This document shows positions 1,285 to 6,521 of a DNA stretch of 19,473 nt, one piece after another (position 1 is the stretch's first letter; each line of letters starts with the position of its first letter). Both the position numbers and the translations under genes were made by a program. Source of the stretch: a bacterium (GTDB lineage Bacteria; Patescibacteriota; Minisyncoccia; Minisyncoccales; MHMH01); assembly GCA_030648815.1 (NCBI GenBank), contig JAUSHA010000029.1, positions 1 through 19,473 of the forward strand, in the 5' to 3' direction. The notes under the pieces were generated by a model. It was given only the letters and a program-made list of their open reading frames with translations, ran no database searches and was not told the origin of the DNA.

Positions 1285-1324
1285 GTTTCTCCTTTTTCTA
1301 TTATCAAAGTACGGTCGAAAAATT

Positions 1325-1356
1325 ATAACAAAAAGCCCCGTTGTTGTCAACAGGGC
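1325..1356 (-). terminator. Rho-independent terminator closing the vWA/kinase cluster
   Basis: The minus strand reads GCCCTGTTG-ACAA-CAACGGGGC (9-bp stem with one G.U, 1335..1356), followed by TTTTGTTATAATTTTT. It starts 11 nt after the stop at 1367. The T-rich tail contains TATAAT, which could double as a -10 for nadE. Confidence 0.6.
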
Positions 1357-1366
1357 TTTTACATTT

Positions 1367-2230
1367 TTAAATCTTGGTTTGCTGGGTCTTCAGCAGGGTC
1401 GCTACCTCATTGGCCCGAGCTGCACCGCGAGTTGCGGCCAGACGAGCCAGATACTTATCAATATCGCCGAATTCCTTGGCGATGATGCCATGCACTACAT
1501 TGGTAAGCCGAAGGAAGTTGCTCCCCAATTCAATGAAATGATCATTCTCTTCCACCATTAATCTCTGCAGTCTTTTCATTGATACGTGTTCGCTGCAACC
1601 GATTACATAGAAAGCTTTGATTTTCTTTTTCAGGGCATCCAGCTCTATCTTCCAATCAACGCCATTCGGACACCCATTATCCCTCCCGGCATATCCTATT
1701 CCATGAGGAACGGAGTCAATCACGGCAAGCACAATTGTATTTGTATCTTGCAAATCCCATGTATTTATCTCCTTGATAGCGCACTCATATGCCTCGGGCT
1801 CGTCATCGCCGCCGGCATTCTCAATGCTATTCAGGTTATTTTTCAGGACTGCGGGATCGCCGGAAAAAGCTGTCGGCTGAAACCATAAACGCCCGTCGCA
1901 ATGATCGCTCACGCCCGTAAAGGAAAATTCTATCTTACCGGCTAATTCCGGAATAAGATCGACAATCTCTGCGCAGAGATATTCCGCCTTCTTTCTTAAA
2001 TTATCTATGTACTCCCTGGTACTTCCGCTTACATCCATTATCAGTAAGATATTCACTTTTCCCGTGGGTCGGGTAATCTTCACGACAACCGGACTCGCTT
2101 GAGCCGCTCTTCTTGTCGGTGGCGGGGTCGATCTTGCCGGTGGCGTGGACGGTGGCGCAGGCGTTGGTCGGAAAAATGACGATCCTCCGCCACTTGGTAC
2201 CCTCTTGTAGCTTTCGTCGCTGTAGCTCAT
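1367..2230 (-). CDS. von Willebrand factor A (vWA) domain protein with a Pro/Ser/Thr-rich N-terminal tail
   Basis: 287-aa ORF with ATG 2230 preceded by AAAGGAGGG. The ~45-aa low-complexity tail (RPTPAPPSTPPARSTPPPTRR) is followed by NILLIMDVSGST (DxSxS MIDAS motif). GGDDEPEAYECAI and IVLAVIDSVPHG follow in the alternating strand/helix pattern of a vWA fold. Confidence 0.8.
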   Translation of the reverse strand: MSYSDESYKRVPSGGGSSFFRPTPAPPSTPPARSTPPPTRRAAQASPVVVKITRPTGKVNILLIMDVSGSTREYIDNLRKKAEYLCAEIVDLIPELAGKIEFSFTGVSDHCDGRLWFQPTAFSGDPAVLKNNLNSIENAGGDDEPEAYECAIKEINTWDLQDTNTIVLAVIDSVPHGIGYAGRDNGCPNGVDWKIELDALKKKIKAFYVIGCSEHVSMKRLQRLMVEENDHFIELGSNFLRLTNVVHGIIAKEFGDIDKYLARLAATRGAARANEVATLLKTQQTKI

Positions 2231-2257
2231 TGGTCCCTCCTTTTTATTTTTTGCACC

Positions 2258-3079
2258 CTATGTTTGGTGCGGTTGCCAATCTTGATTTACATAATTGGTC
2301 CGGATCTTGAAAAAAATATCCTGCATCTCGCCGGCTGATTTATAACGTTCCAGCGGATTTAATTTCATCGCTTTCATTATAGCCGCCGATAACTGCGAAT
2401 GAATCGCAGAATCAATTTCATGCGGCGCTTTTAGATCTTTATCCGATTTCAATTTAATCGCTTCCAGCGGTAAAACATTAGTCAAGGCATAGTAAGCAGT
2501 GGCTCCCAAGCTATAAAAGTCGCTGGCTGGCGTACAACATTCTCCGCGATACTGCTCGGGCGAAGCGAAGTACTTAGTGTAAGAAATCTTACCTCCGCCT
2601 TCGTTTTCGGCCACAGTAACTTTATTTTTAGCTATTCCGAAGTCAACCAATACGGCTCGGTGCTCTCCCAAATTAAGAATGATATTTCCCGGCTTAATAT
2701 CACGATGGACGATGTCCATACGATGCAAATAAGCTAAGCCGGCCAATATCCGATCTAAAATCCAACAAATAGCATCTTCGCTGAACGGCTTTTTCAAATC
2801 AATAAAATCCTGCATTGACTTGCCTCTAATGTAATCCATCACCAGAAAATAATGCCCCTGATATATAAAGAAATCCTTAACTGCCGGGAAAGAAGAATGT
2901 CTGATATGCCGATAAAGTATTTTTGCTTCTTCCAGGAATTGCTTTTCCGCTTCCGGACCTTTTAGGATCAATTCTTTAATAACAACCTCTTCCTGCAAAA
3001 GGATATGCTTGCCTAAATATATCCTACCCATACCTCCTTCTTTAAATGGCTTATCAAACTCATATTGATATATTCTCAA
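2258..3079 (-). CDS. Hanks-type Ser/Thr protein kinase (kinase domain only)
   Basis: 273 aa with a Gly-rich loop EGGMGRIYLG, VVIKE (beta3 Lys), catalytic loop HRDIKPGNIIL, DFGIAK and SPEQ (APE-like). The start must be TTG at 3079, since there is no in-frame ATG upstream of the Gly loop. A GGGAGGTGA SD ~8 nt upstream overlaps the TGA stop of the upstream gene. Confidence 0.9.
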   Translation of the reverse strand: MRIYQYEFDKPFKEGGMGRIYLGKHILLQEEVVIKELILKGPEAEKQFLEEAKILYRHIRHSSFPAVKDFFIYQGHYFLVMDYIRGKSMQDFIDLKKPFSEDAICWILDRILAGLAYLHRMDIVHRDIKPGNIILNLGEHRAVLVDFGIAKNKVTVAENEGGGKISYTKYFASPEQYRGECCTPASDFYSLGATAYYALTNVLPLEAIKLKSDKDLKAPHEIDSAIHSQLSAAIMKAMKLNPLERYKSAGEMQDIFFKIRTNYVNQDWQPHQT

Positions 3080-3085
3080 AGTGCA

Positions 3086-3799
3086 TCACCTCCCTTCAAA
3101 TAATCGTTCGGCTAAAAAGACAGGCAGTCCAGCTTTCATTATTTTCTTAGCTGTCTTCTTAATATAGTAATCTATCCTAACCAGAGAAAATGTCAAACTG
3201 TCAGTATCCAGCAAGCCATAGCAAGCCGATGGATTCTTGTCTCTTGGTTGACCGACACTGCCGACATTTATGATATATCTCACGCTGTCTTTTAATTCTA
3301 CGCCGTCTTTAAACACGTCGCCATCGCTCGTAAAAATCGCAGGGTAATGCGAATGACCGACAAAACAAATCTTTTCCTGAAAACCGTTAAACTGACTTAA
3401 GGCTTCGATGGCGTTAAAAATATAATGGAATCTCCCTGGCTTAATGGGCGAGCCGTGAACCAACAGAATATCCGGCAATCTTACCGTAAAAGGCAGGCAA
3501 GCCAGATACTGCAGATTTTCCGATTTCAATAGAGCCTTCGTCCATAAAGCCGCTAGTTTGGCGGCCGGATTGAAATGCTCCAGCCATGAATCATCAACCA
3601 TCACATAATCGTGATTTCCGACGACAGTCTTAACGCCCATCTTTTTTATTCTTTCAACGCACTCATTCGGATTAGGGCCATAACCGACAATATCTCCCAG
3701 GCACAGAATTTCATCAACTCCATTTTTTTTAATGGATTTCAGAACACTCTTTAACGCTTCTAAATTTCCATGGATATCAGATATTACGGCGTAGCGCAT
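3086..3799 (-). CDS. Calcineurin-like metallophosphoesterase, a putative protein Ser/Thr phosphatase partner of the kinase
   Basis: 237 aa with the ordered metallophosphatase motifs DIHGN, GDIVGYGP, GNHD, GHSH and GSVGQPRD. A TAGGAGGG SD lies upstream of ATG 3799. Protein substrate specificity is inferred from context only. Confidence 0.85.
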   Translation of the reverse strand: MRYAVISDIHGNLEALKSVLKSIKKNGVDEILCLGDIVGYGPNPNECVERIKKMGVKTVVGNHDYVMVDDSWLEHFNPAAKLAALWTKALLKSENLQYLACLPFTVRLPDILLVHGSPIKPGRFHYIFNAIEALSQFNGFQEKICFVGHSHYPAIFTSDGDVFKDGVELKDSVRYIINVGSVGQPRDKNPSACYGLLDTDSLTFSLVRIDYYIKKTAKKIMKAGLPVFLAERLFEGR

Positions 3800-3821
3800 C
3801 TTTTCCCTCCTAAAAGAATTT

Positions 3822-3857
3822 AAAGGGACGCAATGGATTTTCCAAATGCGTCCCTTT
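3822..3857 (-). other. Strong stem-loop between the FHA and phosphatase genes (intra-cluster attenuator or RNA-stability element)
   Basis: AAAGGGACGCA (3822..3832) and TGCGTCCCTTT (3847..3857) form a perfect 11-bp stem with a 14-nt loop. It sits in the 62-nt gap between the stop at 3862 and the start at 3799. On the minus strand it is followed by AAATTCTTTT, which is not a clean U-tract. Confidence 0.45.
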
Positions 3858-3861
3858 CTTC

Positions 3862-4401
3862 TTAGACTACTTCAAAAATCACGTATCCCTCGCTGCCGCC
3901 AAAACGGAAACGAGAACCAACCAGAATCTCTTCTTCTTGATCTTTTAGAAGTTCCTTCCAATCAGTATTCTGCGGCTTAATCATTGTCTTAGCTCCGCCG
4001 ATGGCTCTAAGATACAGACGGCCCATTCTCCGGATGATAATCGCTTGCTTCCGGGAAACAGTATAGCCGACATCCTGGCCAATTTTCACTTTCTCGGCAA
4101 ACTTGGTCAGATCCACATCGGGTATTATGCCCTGGTCAAGATCTGTCCGGCCGATCGTAAATCCGAAATCATCTTTAGGAAGCTCGAATTCCCGGTCAAT
4201 AACATTACCTCCGACCACTAAACCGCAAGCCCTGCCAATAATACCGACTGCGCTCGCTGGAGTATGAGCTGCAGAAGAAGAAGCAATAATTGGAACACTT
4301 GCTCCCACTGTTACTTCTAACGGTTCACTGCAGACTTCGCACAAAATAGCTCCCGGCTTGTTATCTAAGCCGCAGTTATTGCACTTTATTTCTCCGGCCA
4401 T
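3862..4401 (-). CDS. Zinc-ribbon plus divergent FHA (phosphothreonine-binding) domain protein
   Basis: The N-terminus has CNNCG...CEVCS (CxxC-N14-CxxC), followed by an Ala/Ser linker. The C-terminus reads GFTIGR...VSRKQAIIIRRMGRLYLRAIG...ILVGSRFRFGG, matching the FHA G-R...S-R/H pattern but lacking the usual NGT. I prefer ATG 4401 (MAGEIKCNNCG) with an AAAGGAG SD 9 nt upstream. The track's start at 4425 is a TTG that overlaps the upstream gene by 23 nt. Confidence 0.65.
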   Translation of the reverse strand: MAGEIKCNNCGLDNKPGAILCEVCSEPLEVTVGASVPIIASSSAAHTPASAVGIIGRACGLVVGGNVIDREFELPKDDFGFTIGRTDLDQGIIPDVDLTKFAEKVKIGQDVGYTVSRKQAIIIRRMGRLYLRAIGGAKTMIKPQNTDWKELLKDQEEEILVGSRFRFGGSEGYVIFEVV

Positions 4402-4402
4402 T

Positions 4403-5614
4403 TTACTTAGCTCCTTTCTTGCCAATTATGCCCTTGTTGGCTTCAGTCACCGTGACCGTCCTTAGGGTTCTTTTGGCATCCTCATCACTCTTGGCTAAGG
4501 TCTCCACTTTTTTGGCCATACCAGTATTCCCGGACGTCGTAAAAAGAGTTTGGGCCCTATTGTATTGCCCGGATAGGGTCGCTTTTGTCCCCTCGGTATT
4601 CAAAACCGTATTCCTTACTGTCTTATCAACCGGCGAGATCAGCTTTTCATCGGCTGTAAAGTTGACAACCACATTCATGGATTTGACTCCTGCGCCAGCA
4701 ACGCCCTGCCAGCTTAACGCAATAGTGGCTATTTTAAAATCGCCAACTGCTTTCCCGGCGTGAACTTTAGTCTTGATAAGATATGCCTGTCCGCGGACAT
4801 CAAGCCCGGGGAATTCGTCCTTAACAATCTTACCGGAAACCGGTAAAGCTAACTGCTGGGGAACATATTTAAACGCTTCCAAAATTTCAACGACCGGCTC
4901 TGCCGTAATACCAATTCTCACATCAAGATCTTGAACGCTTTTTAGATTTTCCATTTCATCTTCCAGGCGAAGCCTCATGGCACCAACTTGCTTAACGTGC
5001 TCAAAATATGAGCCGTGGCCGGCAACTTCTGCCATATTTTTAAGAAATTTCTCGTTGTAATCAATGCCCGTGCCGAAAACGGCAAATGGAATTCCGAGCC
5101 TATTAGCTTGGCGCGCTAACTCAAGGCAAGCTCTTTCTTCAGCAGCAGCTGACGGAGCATTAACGTTGCCGTCAGTGAAAATGATAATTTTGGGCAAAGA
5201 TCCGTCCATTGGTTTTACATCTTCCAGAGTGTATCTTAGGGGGTTCGAGAGATTAGTACTGCCGCCGGTGCGTACACCATCAATCAGTTTTTTTATTGCG
5301 TTAATATCTCCCACAATCGTCGGATCAAGTATTACCTTCATGGTGTCGTCAAAAACTACGATGCAAAGACGGTCCTTGCCCTGGCGCAAAAGACTCAAAG
5401 ACTCATTTACCGCGGCCTTCAGCGCCTGGATCCTTGTCAGCCCTCCGTCGGCCGGCTCATCCATGGAACCGGAACGGTCCAAAATCTTCCTAAGATCGAG
5501 CGCAAGATCAGCCGATTGCTTTTGGCTGTCTCGCAGCAAGCGAAGTAAAAAAATTACTTCGGCCTCATCCGTGATGGGTAAATACCGCTGACCCAATGTT
5601 AGTTCAACCTGCAT
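4403..5614 (-). CDS. vWA domain protein with a C-terminal beta-rich extension
   Basis: 403 aa with KILDRSGSMDE (DxSxS MIDAS), GGSTNL (MIDAS Thr region) and KIIIFTDGNVN (MIDAS Asp strand). This is followed by a ~180-aa region of alternating beta-like segments and a Lys-rich tail. A GAAGGAGGTG SD lies 5 nt before ATG 5614. Confidence 0.85.
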   Translation of the reverse strand: MQVELTLGQRYLPITDEAEVIFLLRLLRDSQKQSADLALDLRKILDRSGSMDEPADGGLTRIQALKAAVNESLSLLRQGKDRLCIVVFDDTMKVILDPTIVGDINAIKKLIDGVRTGGSTNLSNPLRYTLEDVKPMDGSLPKIIIFTDGNVNAPSAAAEERACLELARQANRLGIPFAVFGTGIDYNEKFLKNMAEVAGHGSYFEHVKQVGAMRLRLEDEMENLKSVQDLDVRIGITAEPVVEILEAFKYVPQQLALPVSGKIVKDEFPGLDVRGQAYLIKTKVHAGKAVGDFKIATIALSWQGVAGAGVKSMNVVVNFTADEKLISPVDKTVRNTVLNTEGTKATLSGQYNRAQTLFTTSGNTGMAKKVETLAKSDEDAKRTLRTVTVTEANKGIIGKKGAK

Positions 5615-5653: not shown

Positions 5654-6286
5654 CTAAAAGACATTAACACACCGTCGAAGCATGTCAAGAACCGGGCAAA
5701 AATCGGATTCTTCTTTCAGGGCAATTTTATCTTCATCTAACACAATAACGCATTCTGAAAAAAAATTATTCCGGTATTCCGGCGACAAATAAATCTTCCT
5801 GAAAAACTTTCTAACTTTTTGCTTAGCCTTAGTTTCGTTATCATACTTTTCCAGAATATCTTCCATAATCTTGACGCCTTCTTCAAACGCCCGCAATTCT
5901 ATATATGGGCACTGCCTTTTGGCTGAAAGCCGCATAAACGGGCAATCAAGCCATTTTGTCAAATCTTCGTTCTCAAAAAAAATAATGTGGCCGAGCTCAT
6001 GGGCAAACTCAAATTCCTGACGAAATAAATCTGCTCTATCTTCCCCGGTCACCAAAAGCGTTTCCAAAGGAACCGAAATAATTTTCCAAAGGCGAGGTAT
6101 TCTCAATCTGCCTATTTCGTCAATCGTTAAGGGATTGATTACTCCCCACCAGCGAATGTTCGAAGAGGAATTGTGGGGAACGAAAAAAACATTCATTTTC
6201 ACGGCAAGCTCAATTAAGTCGGCAAAAATAAAATCCTTGTCTCTTAATCTGTCACGAGCAAATCTGTTAAACTGGCGATCATTCAT
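5654..6286 (-). CDS. Hypothetical protein with an HExxH zinc-metallopeptidase motif (ImmA/IrrE-like?)
   Basis: 210-aa ORF and first gene of the minus-strand cluster, with an AAAGGAG SD upstream of ATG 6286. The single FAHELGHIIFFE motif (HExxH) is followed by scattered Cys (CPF...CPY...C...C). I recognise no other family signature, so the CDS is likely real but its function is tentative. Confidence 0.5.
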   Translation of the reverse strand: MNDRQFNRFARDRLRDKDFIFADLIELAVKMNVFFVPHNSSSNIRWWGVINPLTIDEIGRLRIPRLWKIISVPLETLLVTGEDRADLFRQEFEFAHELGHIIFFENEDLTKWLDCPFMRLSAKRQCPYIELRAFEEGVKIMEDILEKYDNETKAKQKVRKFFRKIYLSPEYRNNFFSECVIVLDEDKIALKEESDFCPVLDMLRRCVNVF

Positions 6287-6521
6287 TTGTCAAAGAACTC
6301 CTTTCATAGGATAGAAAACATTAGCATTTCCTCATAAAAAAATCAATGTCTCAAAAACAATAATATAAAATCCTTACTATTCACAATATAATTTTAATGT
6401 GATAGCCTAATTTAGGTCAACGAGTTCGTTTAAAATTTAACTCGCCGAGGAGGAAAAAGAGAATGACTTAAAAAAAACGAGATGCCGCATTGGTTCTAAA
6501 AAAACAAAGGAGGTAATGCTT
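6287..6521. promoter_or_regulatory. Divergent AT-rich control region between the HExxH-vWA-FHA cluster and the MVP-like gene
   Basis: 235-bp non-coding gap between divergent starts. The candidate minus-strand promoter is TTGACC (6420..6415), an 18-nt spacer, then TAAAAT (6396..6391). An inverted repeat TCACA-N12-TGTGA (6381..6402) overlaps that -10. A GAGGAGGA SD followed by ATG-ACT-TAA (6463..6471) lies on the plus strand. The plus-strand promoter is not confidently placed; TTCACA-N17-TAGCCT at 6380..6408 is possible. Confidence 0.4.

Follow-up and report, generated by a model that had tools for sequence, protein, structure and literature searches.

What kind of system is encoded by the five consecutive minus-strand genes at positions 1367-5614 of contig JAUSHA010000029.1 (assembly GCA_030648815.1), whose 19,473 nucleotides form the window analysed here? 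The host is a Parcubacteria-group bacterium of the candidate phyla radiation (CPR), whose members have tiny genomes and few recognisable regulators. The genes encode two von Willebrand factor A (vWA) proteins, vWA1 and vWA2, a zinc-ribbon protein with a forkhead-associated (FHA) domain, hereafter the reader, a calcineurin-like metallophosphoesterase (MPE) and a Ser/Thr kinase (STK1). An initial annotation, made from the DNA letters, regarded them as a modified TerY-P triad. This five-gene observation is confirmed, since all five open reading frames (ORFs) lie where they had been placed, Pfam and the catalytic motifs agree with the domains named, and Foldseek recovers the FHA fold. The general logic of vWA protein, kinase, phosphatase-like enzyme and phosphothreonine reader also stands as a domain set, but not as a variant of TerY-P. 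We propose instead that the locus is probably a cytoplasmic phosphothreonine switch of the ArnA/ArnB type, complete in itself and contained in one operon of a Parcubacteria/Nealsonbacteria-like CPR bacterium.

The first piece of evidence is vWA1 (403 aa; 4403-5614, minus strand), which matches Pfam VWA_2 with an E of 3e-14 and whose MIDAS (metal-ion-dependent adhesion site) residues D46, S48, S50, T120 and D148 are invariant across 31 homologues. ArnB (8s05_A) is its sole sequence match in the Protein Data Bank (PDB), with an E of 2.3e-5. Analysing the AlphaFold2 model, whose mean predicted local distance difference test score (pLDDT) is 91, it is possible to see N-terminal beta strands followed by the vWA domain (38-225), an 8-stranded beta-sandwich (229-320) and a Thr-rich C-terminal four-helix bundle (331-391). 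Published work on ArnB and the paralogous ArnE describes the same tripartite topology (PMC6509490). The best full-length Foldseek matches are 4fx5 (1.5e-28), ArnB 8s05 (3.6e-23) and ArnE 5a8j (1.3e-19), with TM-scores of 0.62-0.75, and Sec23/24 chains follow at E ~1e-14; the authors of the ArnAB work call ArnAB the archaeal orthologue of the Sec23/24 core. Threonine makes up 16.9% of the last 83 aa of vWA1 (14 Thr) vs 4.4% elsewhere, and eight of the C-terminal threonines are kept in 15 or all 16 of the sequences compared, which come from CPR, Asgard and deltaproteobacterial sources. Judged by its model, vWA1 appears to be an ArnB/Sec23-core-like protein and not a stand-alone TerY vWA, and we propose that it may serve as phospho-acceptor and scaffold. 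A further vWA1 homologue, P0059, has RmuC, a helicase and BrxC as neighbours and no FHA gene in its context; thus an FHA reader does not accompany every member of the broad YfcK/ArnB-like vWA family.

The gene that follows vWA1 encodes the reader (179 aa; 3862-4401, minus strand). Its true start is the ATG at 4401, 1 nt past the stop of vWA1, whose 3' end contains the ribosome-binding site (AAAGGAG); the ORF list gives 3862-4425, and the residue numbers used here refer to that 187-aa ORF and not to the 179-aa product. In this protein a linker of low complexity joins a RanBP2-type zinc ribbon (CxxC-x10-CxxC) to a divergent FHA domain. The ribbon, CNNCGLDNKPGAILCEVC, has the RanBP2-type spacing C-x2-C-x3-N-x6-C-x2-C and matches RanBP2/NZF fingers. 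In Pfam the window protein itself gives a weak zinc-ribbon match alone, with FHA below detection, but a 55%-identical homologue (locus L010) clears the FHA gathering score and the top Foldseek match of the reader is the FHA domain of ArnA. The FHA assignment of the initial annotation is therefore borne out by structure and by this homologue, but not by a Pfam match of the window protein. Searched against the PDB, the profile of the reader family finds 8S05 chain C and 5A8I at a marginal E of 0.016, covering both the zinc-ribbon and the FHA parts, and no PDB sequence other than ArnA is matched over the full length. The model is consistent with the 11-stranded beta-sandwich of the FHA fold (PF00498), and the order of an N-terminal RanBP2-type zinc finger and a C-terminal FHA domain is that of ArnA. 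At the GR and SxxH positions of the FHA domain, G92, R93, S124 and R125 are near-invariant in the family. The SxxH histidine is Gln in the window reader and His in four other loci (L010, L011, L012 and L013). Furthermore, G-[GS]-A-K-T stands in place of the NG motif, and a conserved 30-residue insert is modelled with pLDDT <50.

The genes for vWA1 and the reader also overlap or abut in 5-6 other loci (including L005, L008, L011, L012 and L013). By sequence the pair thus forms a conserved, translationally coupled core, as with arnB and arnA. The FHA protein, which the initial annotation had described as an insertion into an existing module, belongs instead to this core, and it is the MPE that appears dispensable.

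In order to judge the resemblance, the Sulfolobus acidocaldarius module has to be considered. It consists of ArnA and ArnB, the kinases ArnC and ArnD and the phosphatase PP2A, and is represented by the structures 5A8I, 5A8J and 8S05 (PMC6509490, PMC12852372, PMC7472852). ArnA combines a RanBP2-type zinc finger with an FHA domain, and in 8S05, the ArnA/ArnB complex, the zinc finger contacts ArnB. The phosphosites of ArnB and its ArnA-binding region are located in the C-terminal bundle (PMC6509490). Phosphorylation by ArnC tightens the ArnA/ArnB complex, and the role of the phosphatase, too, is experimentally established in Sulfolobus (PMC6509490, PMC12852372, PMC7472852). As in Sulfolobus, the window holds adjacent genes for a RanBP2-type zinc-finger-FHA protein and a vWA protein, and this adjacency is what is found for vWA1 and the reader, the complex of the two proteins being our proposal. 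Both vWA1 and ArnB are tripartite, and the Thr-rich bundle of vWA1 parallels the bundle phosphosites of ArnB; a Hanks kinase would be the writer in both systems and an enzyme of the calcineurin superfamily the candidate eraser. There are also clear differences. Kinase and phosphatase-like enzyme are encoded within the operon here, while ArnC/ArnD and PP2A figure in work on Sulfolobus as distinct members of a network. The eraser candidate of the window is Metallophos_2/YfcE-like and the Sulfolobus enzyme a PPP phosphatase (PP2A); the window FHA domain is without the NG motif and has the 30-residue insert; the operon has in addition an M78-like peptidase gene and another vWA protein, unrelated-looking to the first; and the host is a CPR bacterium.

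The kinase STK1 (273 aa; 2258-3079, minus strand) matches Pfam Pkinase with an E of 7.3e-36, residues 6-254 align with the kinase domain of PknB, and the catalytic residues K35, HRD125, DFG146 and SPE173 are present. Pfam and NCBIfam gave no second domain and no hydrophobic segment was found. STK1 thus reads as a bare, soluble catalytic domain of a Hanks-type Ser/Thr kinase, in agreement with the initial description of a 273-aa kinase domain lacking a transmembrane region.

Looking at the arrangement of the genes, the transcription unit extends beyond the five genes, from a promoter-like site at 6391-6420 (minus strand; TTGACC-18-TAAAAT, 10/12 consensus match) through the M78-like gene (210 aa; 5654-6286, minus strand), which comes first and lies 39 nt upstream of vWA1, to an intrinsic-terminator-like hairpin at 1331-1360 (minus strand; 13-bp stem, 6 GC pairs, T-rich tail). 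In the direction from the M78-like gene to vWA2 the intergenic gaps are 39, 1, 62, 6 and 27 nt. The hairpin begins 7 nt past the vWA2 stop and has no counterpart elsewhere in the gene set, and none of the six operon proteins has a hydrophobic segment. Short gaps, a common strand, a terminator at the end and the lack of hydrophobic segments make the locus look like a single operon of soluble proteins. The candidate operon promoter is a consensus match only, weakly supported because the scan found 11 such sites vs 8.9 expected in shuffles; it sits in the divergent intergenic region shared with a major vault protein (MVP) gene.

The last gene encodes vWA2 (287 aa; 1367-2230, minus strand), a divergent vWA protein. 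In Pfam only vWA families appear among its matches, all sub-threshold and in 5 of 11 members, and searches of the PDB with the single sequence and with a profile gave no meaningful match. A family profile nevertheless recovers 2322 relatives among 1.84 billion representatives, and of ten distant relatives sampled, six pass the Pfam cutoffs for VWA/VWA_4, a seventh stays below threshold and the remaining three give no match in Pfam. The MIDAS residues D66-x-[ST]-x-S70 and D172 are invariant, further motifs are GGDxPEAYEC and DSVPHG, and vWA2 would by these signs possess the Rossmann-like fold with MIDAS of a vWA domain. Compared by hhalign, the vWA2 and vWA1 families give an E of 1e-3 over 168 columns at a probability of 20%. 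The earlier statement that the locus holds two dissimilar vWA proteins is upheld, the case of vWA2 being settled by the large profile search. Residues 1-58 form a disordered Ser/Thr/Pro-rich tail (47% S+T+P) with a conserved FFxPTPxP motif, and a conserved helical extension lies C-terminal to the vWA domain. The sampled relatives include HSP70-, Ras- and BTB-fused proteins, the Ras/BTB domain make-up looking eukaryotic, and relatives of ~34% identity occur near ThiF/E1-like proteins and not near kinases (L020:367-5731 and L021:1842-4633). From these contexts and fusions the vWA2 family looks like a widely reused adaptor.

The cassette is rare. In a search of 5.8 billion proteins homologues are few, with 10 clusters for the reader and 9 for vWA2. 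All close homologues occupy one syntenic place within a Parcubacteria/Nealsonbacteria-like clade. The gene order of this clade is M78-like, vWA1, reader, MPE, STK1, vWA2, NAD synthase and NUDIX hydrolase, and the position of the cassette between a leuA-like gene and NAD synthase is fixed. The core order vWA1, reader, (MPE), STK1, vWA2 is found in at least 8 distinct CPR loci, with the MPE missing in some, and also in an Asgard metagenome-assembled genome (MAG) with different flanks; an arrangement repeated in this way is not due to chance. Scanning GTDB with a single peptide pattern recovered one Nealsonbacteria MAG only, an approach which underestimates the distribution. The Asgard locus (L012; GCA_054386635.1, contig JBQSIE010000196.1, a MAG labelled Promethearchaeota) runs vWA1, reader, STK1, acetyltransferase, vWA2-zinc ribbon fusion, STK2 and pyruvate-kinase-like gene. 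Identities to the window proteins are 41% for vWA1 (the nearest outside the clade), 36% for the reader, 52% for STK1 and 40% for vWA2, the Asgard vWA2-zinc ribbon protein having 366 aa. Identities of 36-52% are unusually high for a pair of bacterium and archaeon and suggest horizontal transfer. The Asgard operon holds no MPE, a 25%-identical Metallophos gene lying 5 kb upstream and outside it. Furthermore, a deltaproteobacterial contig carries the vWA1 and reader pair, and the metagenomic locus L029 encodes PP2C, vWA, a zinc-ribbon-FHA protein, an FHA-vWA-FHA protein and a kinase, its vWA protein being 25% identical to vWA1 over 84%. Taken from these sequences, the conserved core appears to be the vWA and reader pair with a kinase, the phosphatase slot being filled by PP2C, by an MPE or by nothing.

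We propose the following mechanism. Translational coupling would yield vWA1 and the reader in a fixed ratio, and the two would form a loose complex via the zinc ribbon. STK1 would phosphorylate the conserved threonine cluster in the C-terminal helix bundle of vWA1, and may also phosphorylate the Ser/Thr/Pro-rich tail of vWA2. Binding of the FHA domain to the phosphothreonines of vWA1 would then lock the complex tight, and removal of the phosphates by the MPE would reset the switch. The MIDAS faces of both vWA domains are the likely output surfaces, by which a target may be recruited or released. Directly observed are which domains are present, that the architectures resemble those of ArnB and ArnA, that catalytic and MIDAS residues are intact, how the operon is built and that the cassette is conserved. 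By analogy we infer which protein the kinase modifies, a retained affinity of the FHA domain for phosphothreonine, an action of the MPE on protein and the nature of the biological output.

Several observations weigh against this proposal. ArnA and ArnB share only 16-19% identity with the window proteins, at an E of 2e-5 for vWA1 and 0.016 for the reader profile, and the window pair are thus distant relatives and not orthologues. To our knowledge CPR bacteria have no archaellum, there are no archaellum genes in the window, and no target or output gene is identifiable at the locus. With the NG motif lost, Gln in place of His and the 30-residue insert, binding of phosphothreonine by the FHA domain is not assured. 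Most conserved loci belong to one narrow syntenic clade, so that part of the conservation of gene order reflects common descent. More distant relatives of vWA2 are found without the other cassette genes, and elsewhere vWA2 also accompanies a second kinase, STK2. The weakest link, however, is the MPE: by sequence it appears nearer to YfcE/ApaH-like phosphodiesterases than to PPP protein phosphatases, and its gene is absent from the CPR loci L005 and L010, where reader and kinase are separated by 229 nt (2683-2912) and 56 nt (1133-1189), and from the Asgard operon, although the other core genes are kept. In some lineages the MPE thus seems to be a dispensable member of the cassette.

What the MPE (237 aa; 3086-3799, minus strand) may do has therefore to be weighed with care. 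That it is a calcineurin-like enzyme rather than PP2C is as first described: it matches Pfam Metallophos_2 (4.2e-22) ahead of Metallophos (1.6e-17), and the metal-ligand motifs DIH(8), GD(35), GNH(61) and GHSH(148) are all intact. We propose it as the candidate eraser phosphatase, with a predicted protein substrate. It could instead be a nucleotide or dinucleoside-polyphosphate phosphodiesterase of the YfcE/ApaH/SapH kind, either a secondary arrival or a link to a nucleotide signal, with kinase, FHA and vWA proteins still forming a switch. Its position between the reader and kinase genes, 6 nt from the latter, argues for a role within the module, as does the bona fide protein phosphatase PP2C encoded in the operon of homologous cassettes. 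Sequence comparison points in the other direction: Metallophos_2 is the better Pfam match; in NCBIfam, with all matches below cutoff, a YfcE-type phosphodiesterase (1.5e-14) and ApaH (7.8e-10) come ahead of PrpA/B-type phosphatases (5e-8); and in the PDB the closest entries, 3rqz (1.8e-51) and then 1nnw, are uncharacterised and are followed by YfcE, ApaH-like 2qjc and the Ap4A hydrolase SapH (3qfm). PrpA/B and lambda phosphatase (1.2e-3) are still detectable relatives. PPP protein phosphatases bear the signatures GDxVDRG and GNHE; at these positions the MPE carries GDIVGYG and GNHD, and it is not a PPP-family eraser like the PP2A of the ArnA/ArnB module, even though PP2A too belongs to the calcineurin-like superfamily. 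In the literature on 3RQZ, 1NNW, MJ0912 and PF1291 we found no functional characterisation of these nearest structural relatives. The absence of the gene from L005, L010 and the Asgard operon, together with NAD synthase and NUDIX hydrolase genes downstream, would also suit a nucleotide-directed enzyme. The initial annotation had named a grouping with nucleotide hydrolases as evidence against its own phosphatase; this has come about in part, YfcE and ApaH being the nearest characterised relatives and the PPP enzymes weaker ones. We regard a phosphodiesterase as a real though doubtful alternative to the eraser.

The TerY-P triad, the initial frame, comprises a TerY-like vWA protein, PP2C and a kinase whose C-terminus carries a fused zinc ribbon or OB fold (Anantharaman et al. 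2012 per PMC11090510), and TerY-P is a stand-alone defence system of Gao et al. 2020 (PMC11090510). Like the window locus it unites genes for vWA protein, Ser/Thr kinase and phosphatase in a proposed phosphorylation-dependent switch, and the locus could on this basis be a TerY-P-like conflict or anti-phage stress module, in which a vWA sensor, kinase and phosphatase respond to metal or infection. The operon opens with an ImmA/IrrE-like HExxH gene with weak matches to RmrA/CapP-type defence regulators and abuts a strain-variable 2.8-kb insertion with an MVP homologue, and STK1 scores 1e-50 against the PD-T4-6 kinase models of PADLOC. These kinase matches reflect generic Hanks similarity, however, since 36 different models are hit. 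No operon ORF matches PP2C, the phosphatase-like enzyme being the MPE; STK1 has no C-terminal zinc ribbon or OB fold, the zinc ribbon being carried by the separate FHA protein; and vWA1 is ArnB/Sec23-core-like. Two of three TerY-P features thus fail, so that TerY-P is not the closest relative and the ArnA/ArnB module lies closer. Neither vWA1 nor vWA2 has a PADLOC match at E<=10 or a TerY name in NCBIfam, no TerY-specific profile having been used, and the MPE and the reader likewise have no PADLOC match at that threshold, in a release in which TerY-P models are unconfirmed. Neither Ter and McrBC/CoCoNuT genes nor other defence genes accompany the operon, which also contains no nuclease, no NTPase and no further kind of effector. 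Instead of lying in a mobile island, the cassette keeps its fixed leuA-like/NAD synthase position across the clade. We consider a role in defence conceivable but unsupported and quite unlikely. Still less credible, to the point of being highly improbable, is that five genes which do not work together happen to be neighbours in a CPR genome that is small and dense in genes, syntenic by descent only. The full-order loci do come mostly from one clade, with the flanking NAD synthase, NUDIX and STK2 genes shared too, and distant vWA2 relatives do occur alone. But vWA1, reader, STK1 and vWA2 are linked at 36-52% identity in an Asgard MAG between different flanks, the vWA and reader pair recurs in the deltaproteobacterial contig and, with PP2C and a kinase, in L029, the genes share one strand with gaps of 1-62 nt and a terminator after the last gene only, and their domains form a coherent set of writer, reader, eraser and substrate known from ArnA/ArnB.

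Switches built of FHA, vWA, kinase and phosphatase components are already known in Archaea (Arn) and in Bacteria (Deinococcus). In Deinococcus radiodurans the operon DRA0331-DRA0334 (vWA, STK, FHA, PP2C) has been experimentally studied (bioRxiv 10.64898/2026.01.23.701218), and both this operon and L029 unite in one operon the roles of vWA protein, FHA reader, Hanks kinase and phosphatase, the last of these being inferred in the window; the FHA protein of L029 also has an N-terminal zinc ribbon. In both the phosphatase is PP2C, fused in Deinococcus to a KI-FHA domain, whereas the window has an MPE, and by this comparison the initial description of a swapped phosphatase is fair. The Deinococcus kinase is transmembrane and STK1 a soluble bare domain; neither operon has a vWA2-type protein, and L029 has the additional FHA-vWA-FHA protein. 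With Sec23/Sec24 of COPII the window pair shares the arrangement of zinc finger, vWA (trunk), beta-sandwich and helical domain. This is a resemblance of fold only, as the window has no gelsolin domain and no Sar1 or membrane context, and its zinc finger is on the separate FHA polypeptide.

New here are the CPR host, the presence of all partners in one operon and the Metallophos_2-type enzyme in the phosphatase slot. The additional vWA2 with its S/T/P tail and the M78-like first gene are further novelties, and so is the close Asgard counterpart, which suggests transfer between domains. The ArnA/ArnB paradigm, the only structurally and genetically dissected FHA-vWA switch, would thereby reach beyond Sulfolobales to include bacteria and an Asgard MAG. 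A complete cassette of writer, reader, eraser and substrate is one of few tractable entries into CPR signalling, and with all partners side by side its reconstitution from four or five small soluble proteins is straightforward. If the MPE is the eraser, a Metallophos_2-type enzyme is added to the known Ser/Thr phosphatases; if not, the phosphatase slot of such cassettes is optional. For annotation, the genes should be labelled ArnB-like and ArnA-like and not TerY-like.

Outside the window a second association was observed, consisting of a vWA2-family protein, the kinase STK2 and a short pyruvate-kinase-barrel protein (L001:15916-17367 and 19514-19937; L012:13259-16951; L017:1581-8693). STK2 is an N-terminally extended kinase with 35% identity over the full length between CPR and Asgard, and its association with the pyruvate-kinase protein occurs in CPR loci, in the Asgard MAG and in an unrelated metagenomic contig. 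In L017 both a CTP_transf-like and a radical-SAM-type gene are present as well; the former occurs in the CPR loci too, the latter in L008. One may speculate that the cassette is half of a larger, undescribed signalling system passed by horizontal transfer between Asgard archaea and CPR, in which vWA2 couples vWA1, reader and STK1 to STK2 and a truncated pyruvate-kinase-like enzyme, the MPE representing a new class of dedicated phosphothreonine phosphatase; we think this rather unlikely.

The M78-like protein reaches Pfam Peptidase_M78 at the borderline (E 2.7e-4; 21.2 bits vs a cutoff of 22), and its similarity to the RmrA- and CapP-type models of PADLOC is likewise borderline. H96, E97, G99, H100 and four cysteines are invariant in five CPR homologues, as is an ELRAFEEG motif, and the protein may be regarded as a putative Zn-metallopeptidase (HExGH; ImmA/IrrE/M78-like). 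As an accessory gene it opens the operon in most CPR loci, being present in L001-5, L007, L008 and L015, while neither the Nealsonbacteria MAG nor the Asgard locus was seen to carry it.

Upstream of the operon, a strain-specific insertion lies directly beside it in this CPR genome, as is apparent from a 2.8-kb segment (6248-9047) which is missing from 92%-identical relatives; in these the leuA-like and M78-like genes are direct neighbours. The segment carries the MVP homologue (830 aa; 6516-9008, plus strand), with matches to MVP_shoulder (2.7e-25), Vault_3 (2.3e-12) and Band_7, residues 455-800 matching MVP chains of the PDB at E ~5e-20. Being on the opposite strand, and missing from relatives that retain the operon, the MVP gene was rejected as a member of the module. 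At the other end, positions 1-1366 are not a non-coding region, since the NAD synthase gene, assigned via the 92%-identical relatives, runs off the window edge. It is served by a perfect extended -10 sigma-70 promoter at 1322-1350 (minus strand; TTGACA-17-TG-TATAAT), which overlaps the terminator hairpin within the 75-nt spacer between vWA2 and NAD synthase, the -35 hexamer lying inside the hairpin. Rfam and tRNA scans over the window gave no matches. Two more segments are likewise absent from the 92%-identical relatives. In the first, 11797-13198, lie one ORF of 180 aa (11838-12380) and one of 258 aa (12423-13199), the latter a candidate IS200/REP-associated Y1 transposase by its resemblance to the eye, and the second, 14273-15794, holds a Cys-rich ORF of 420 aa (14413-15675).

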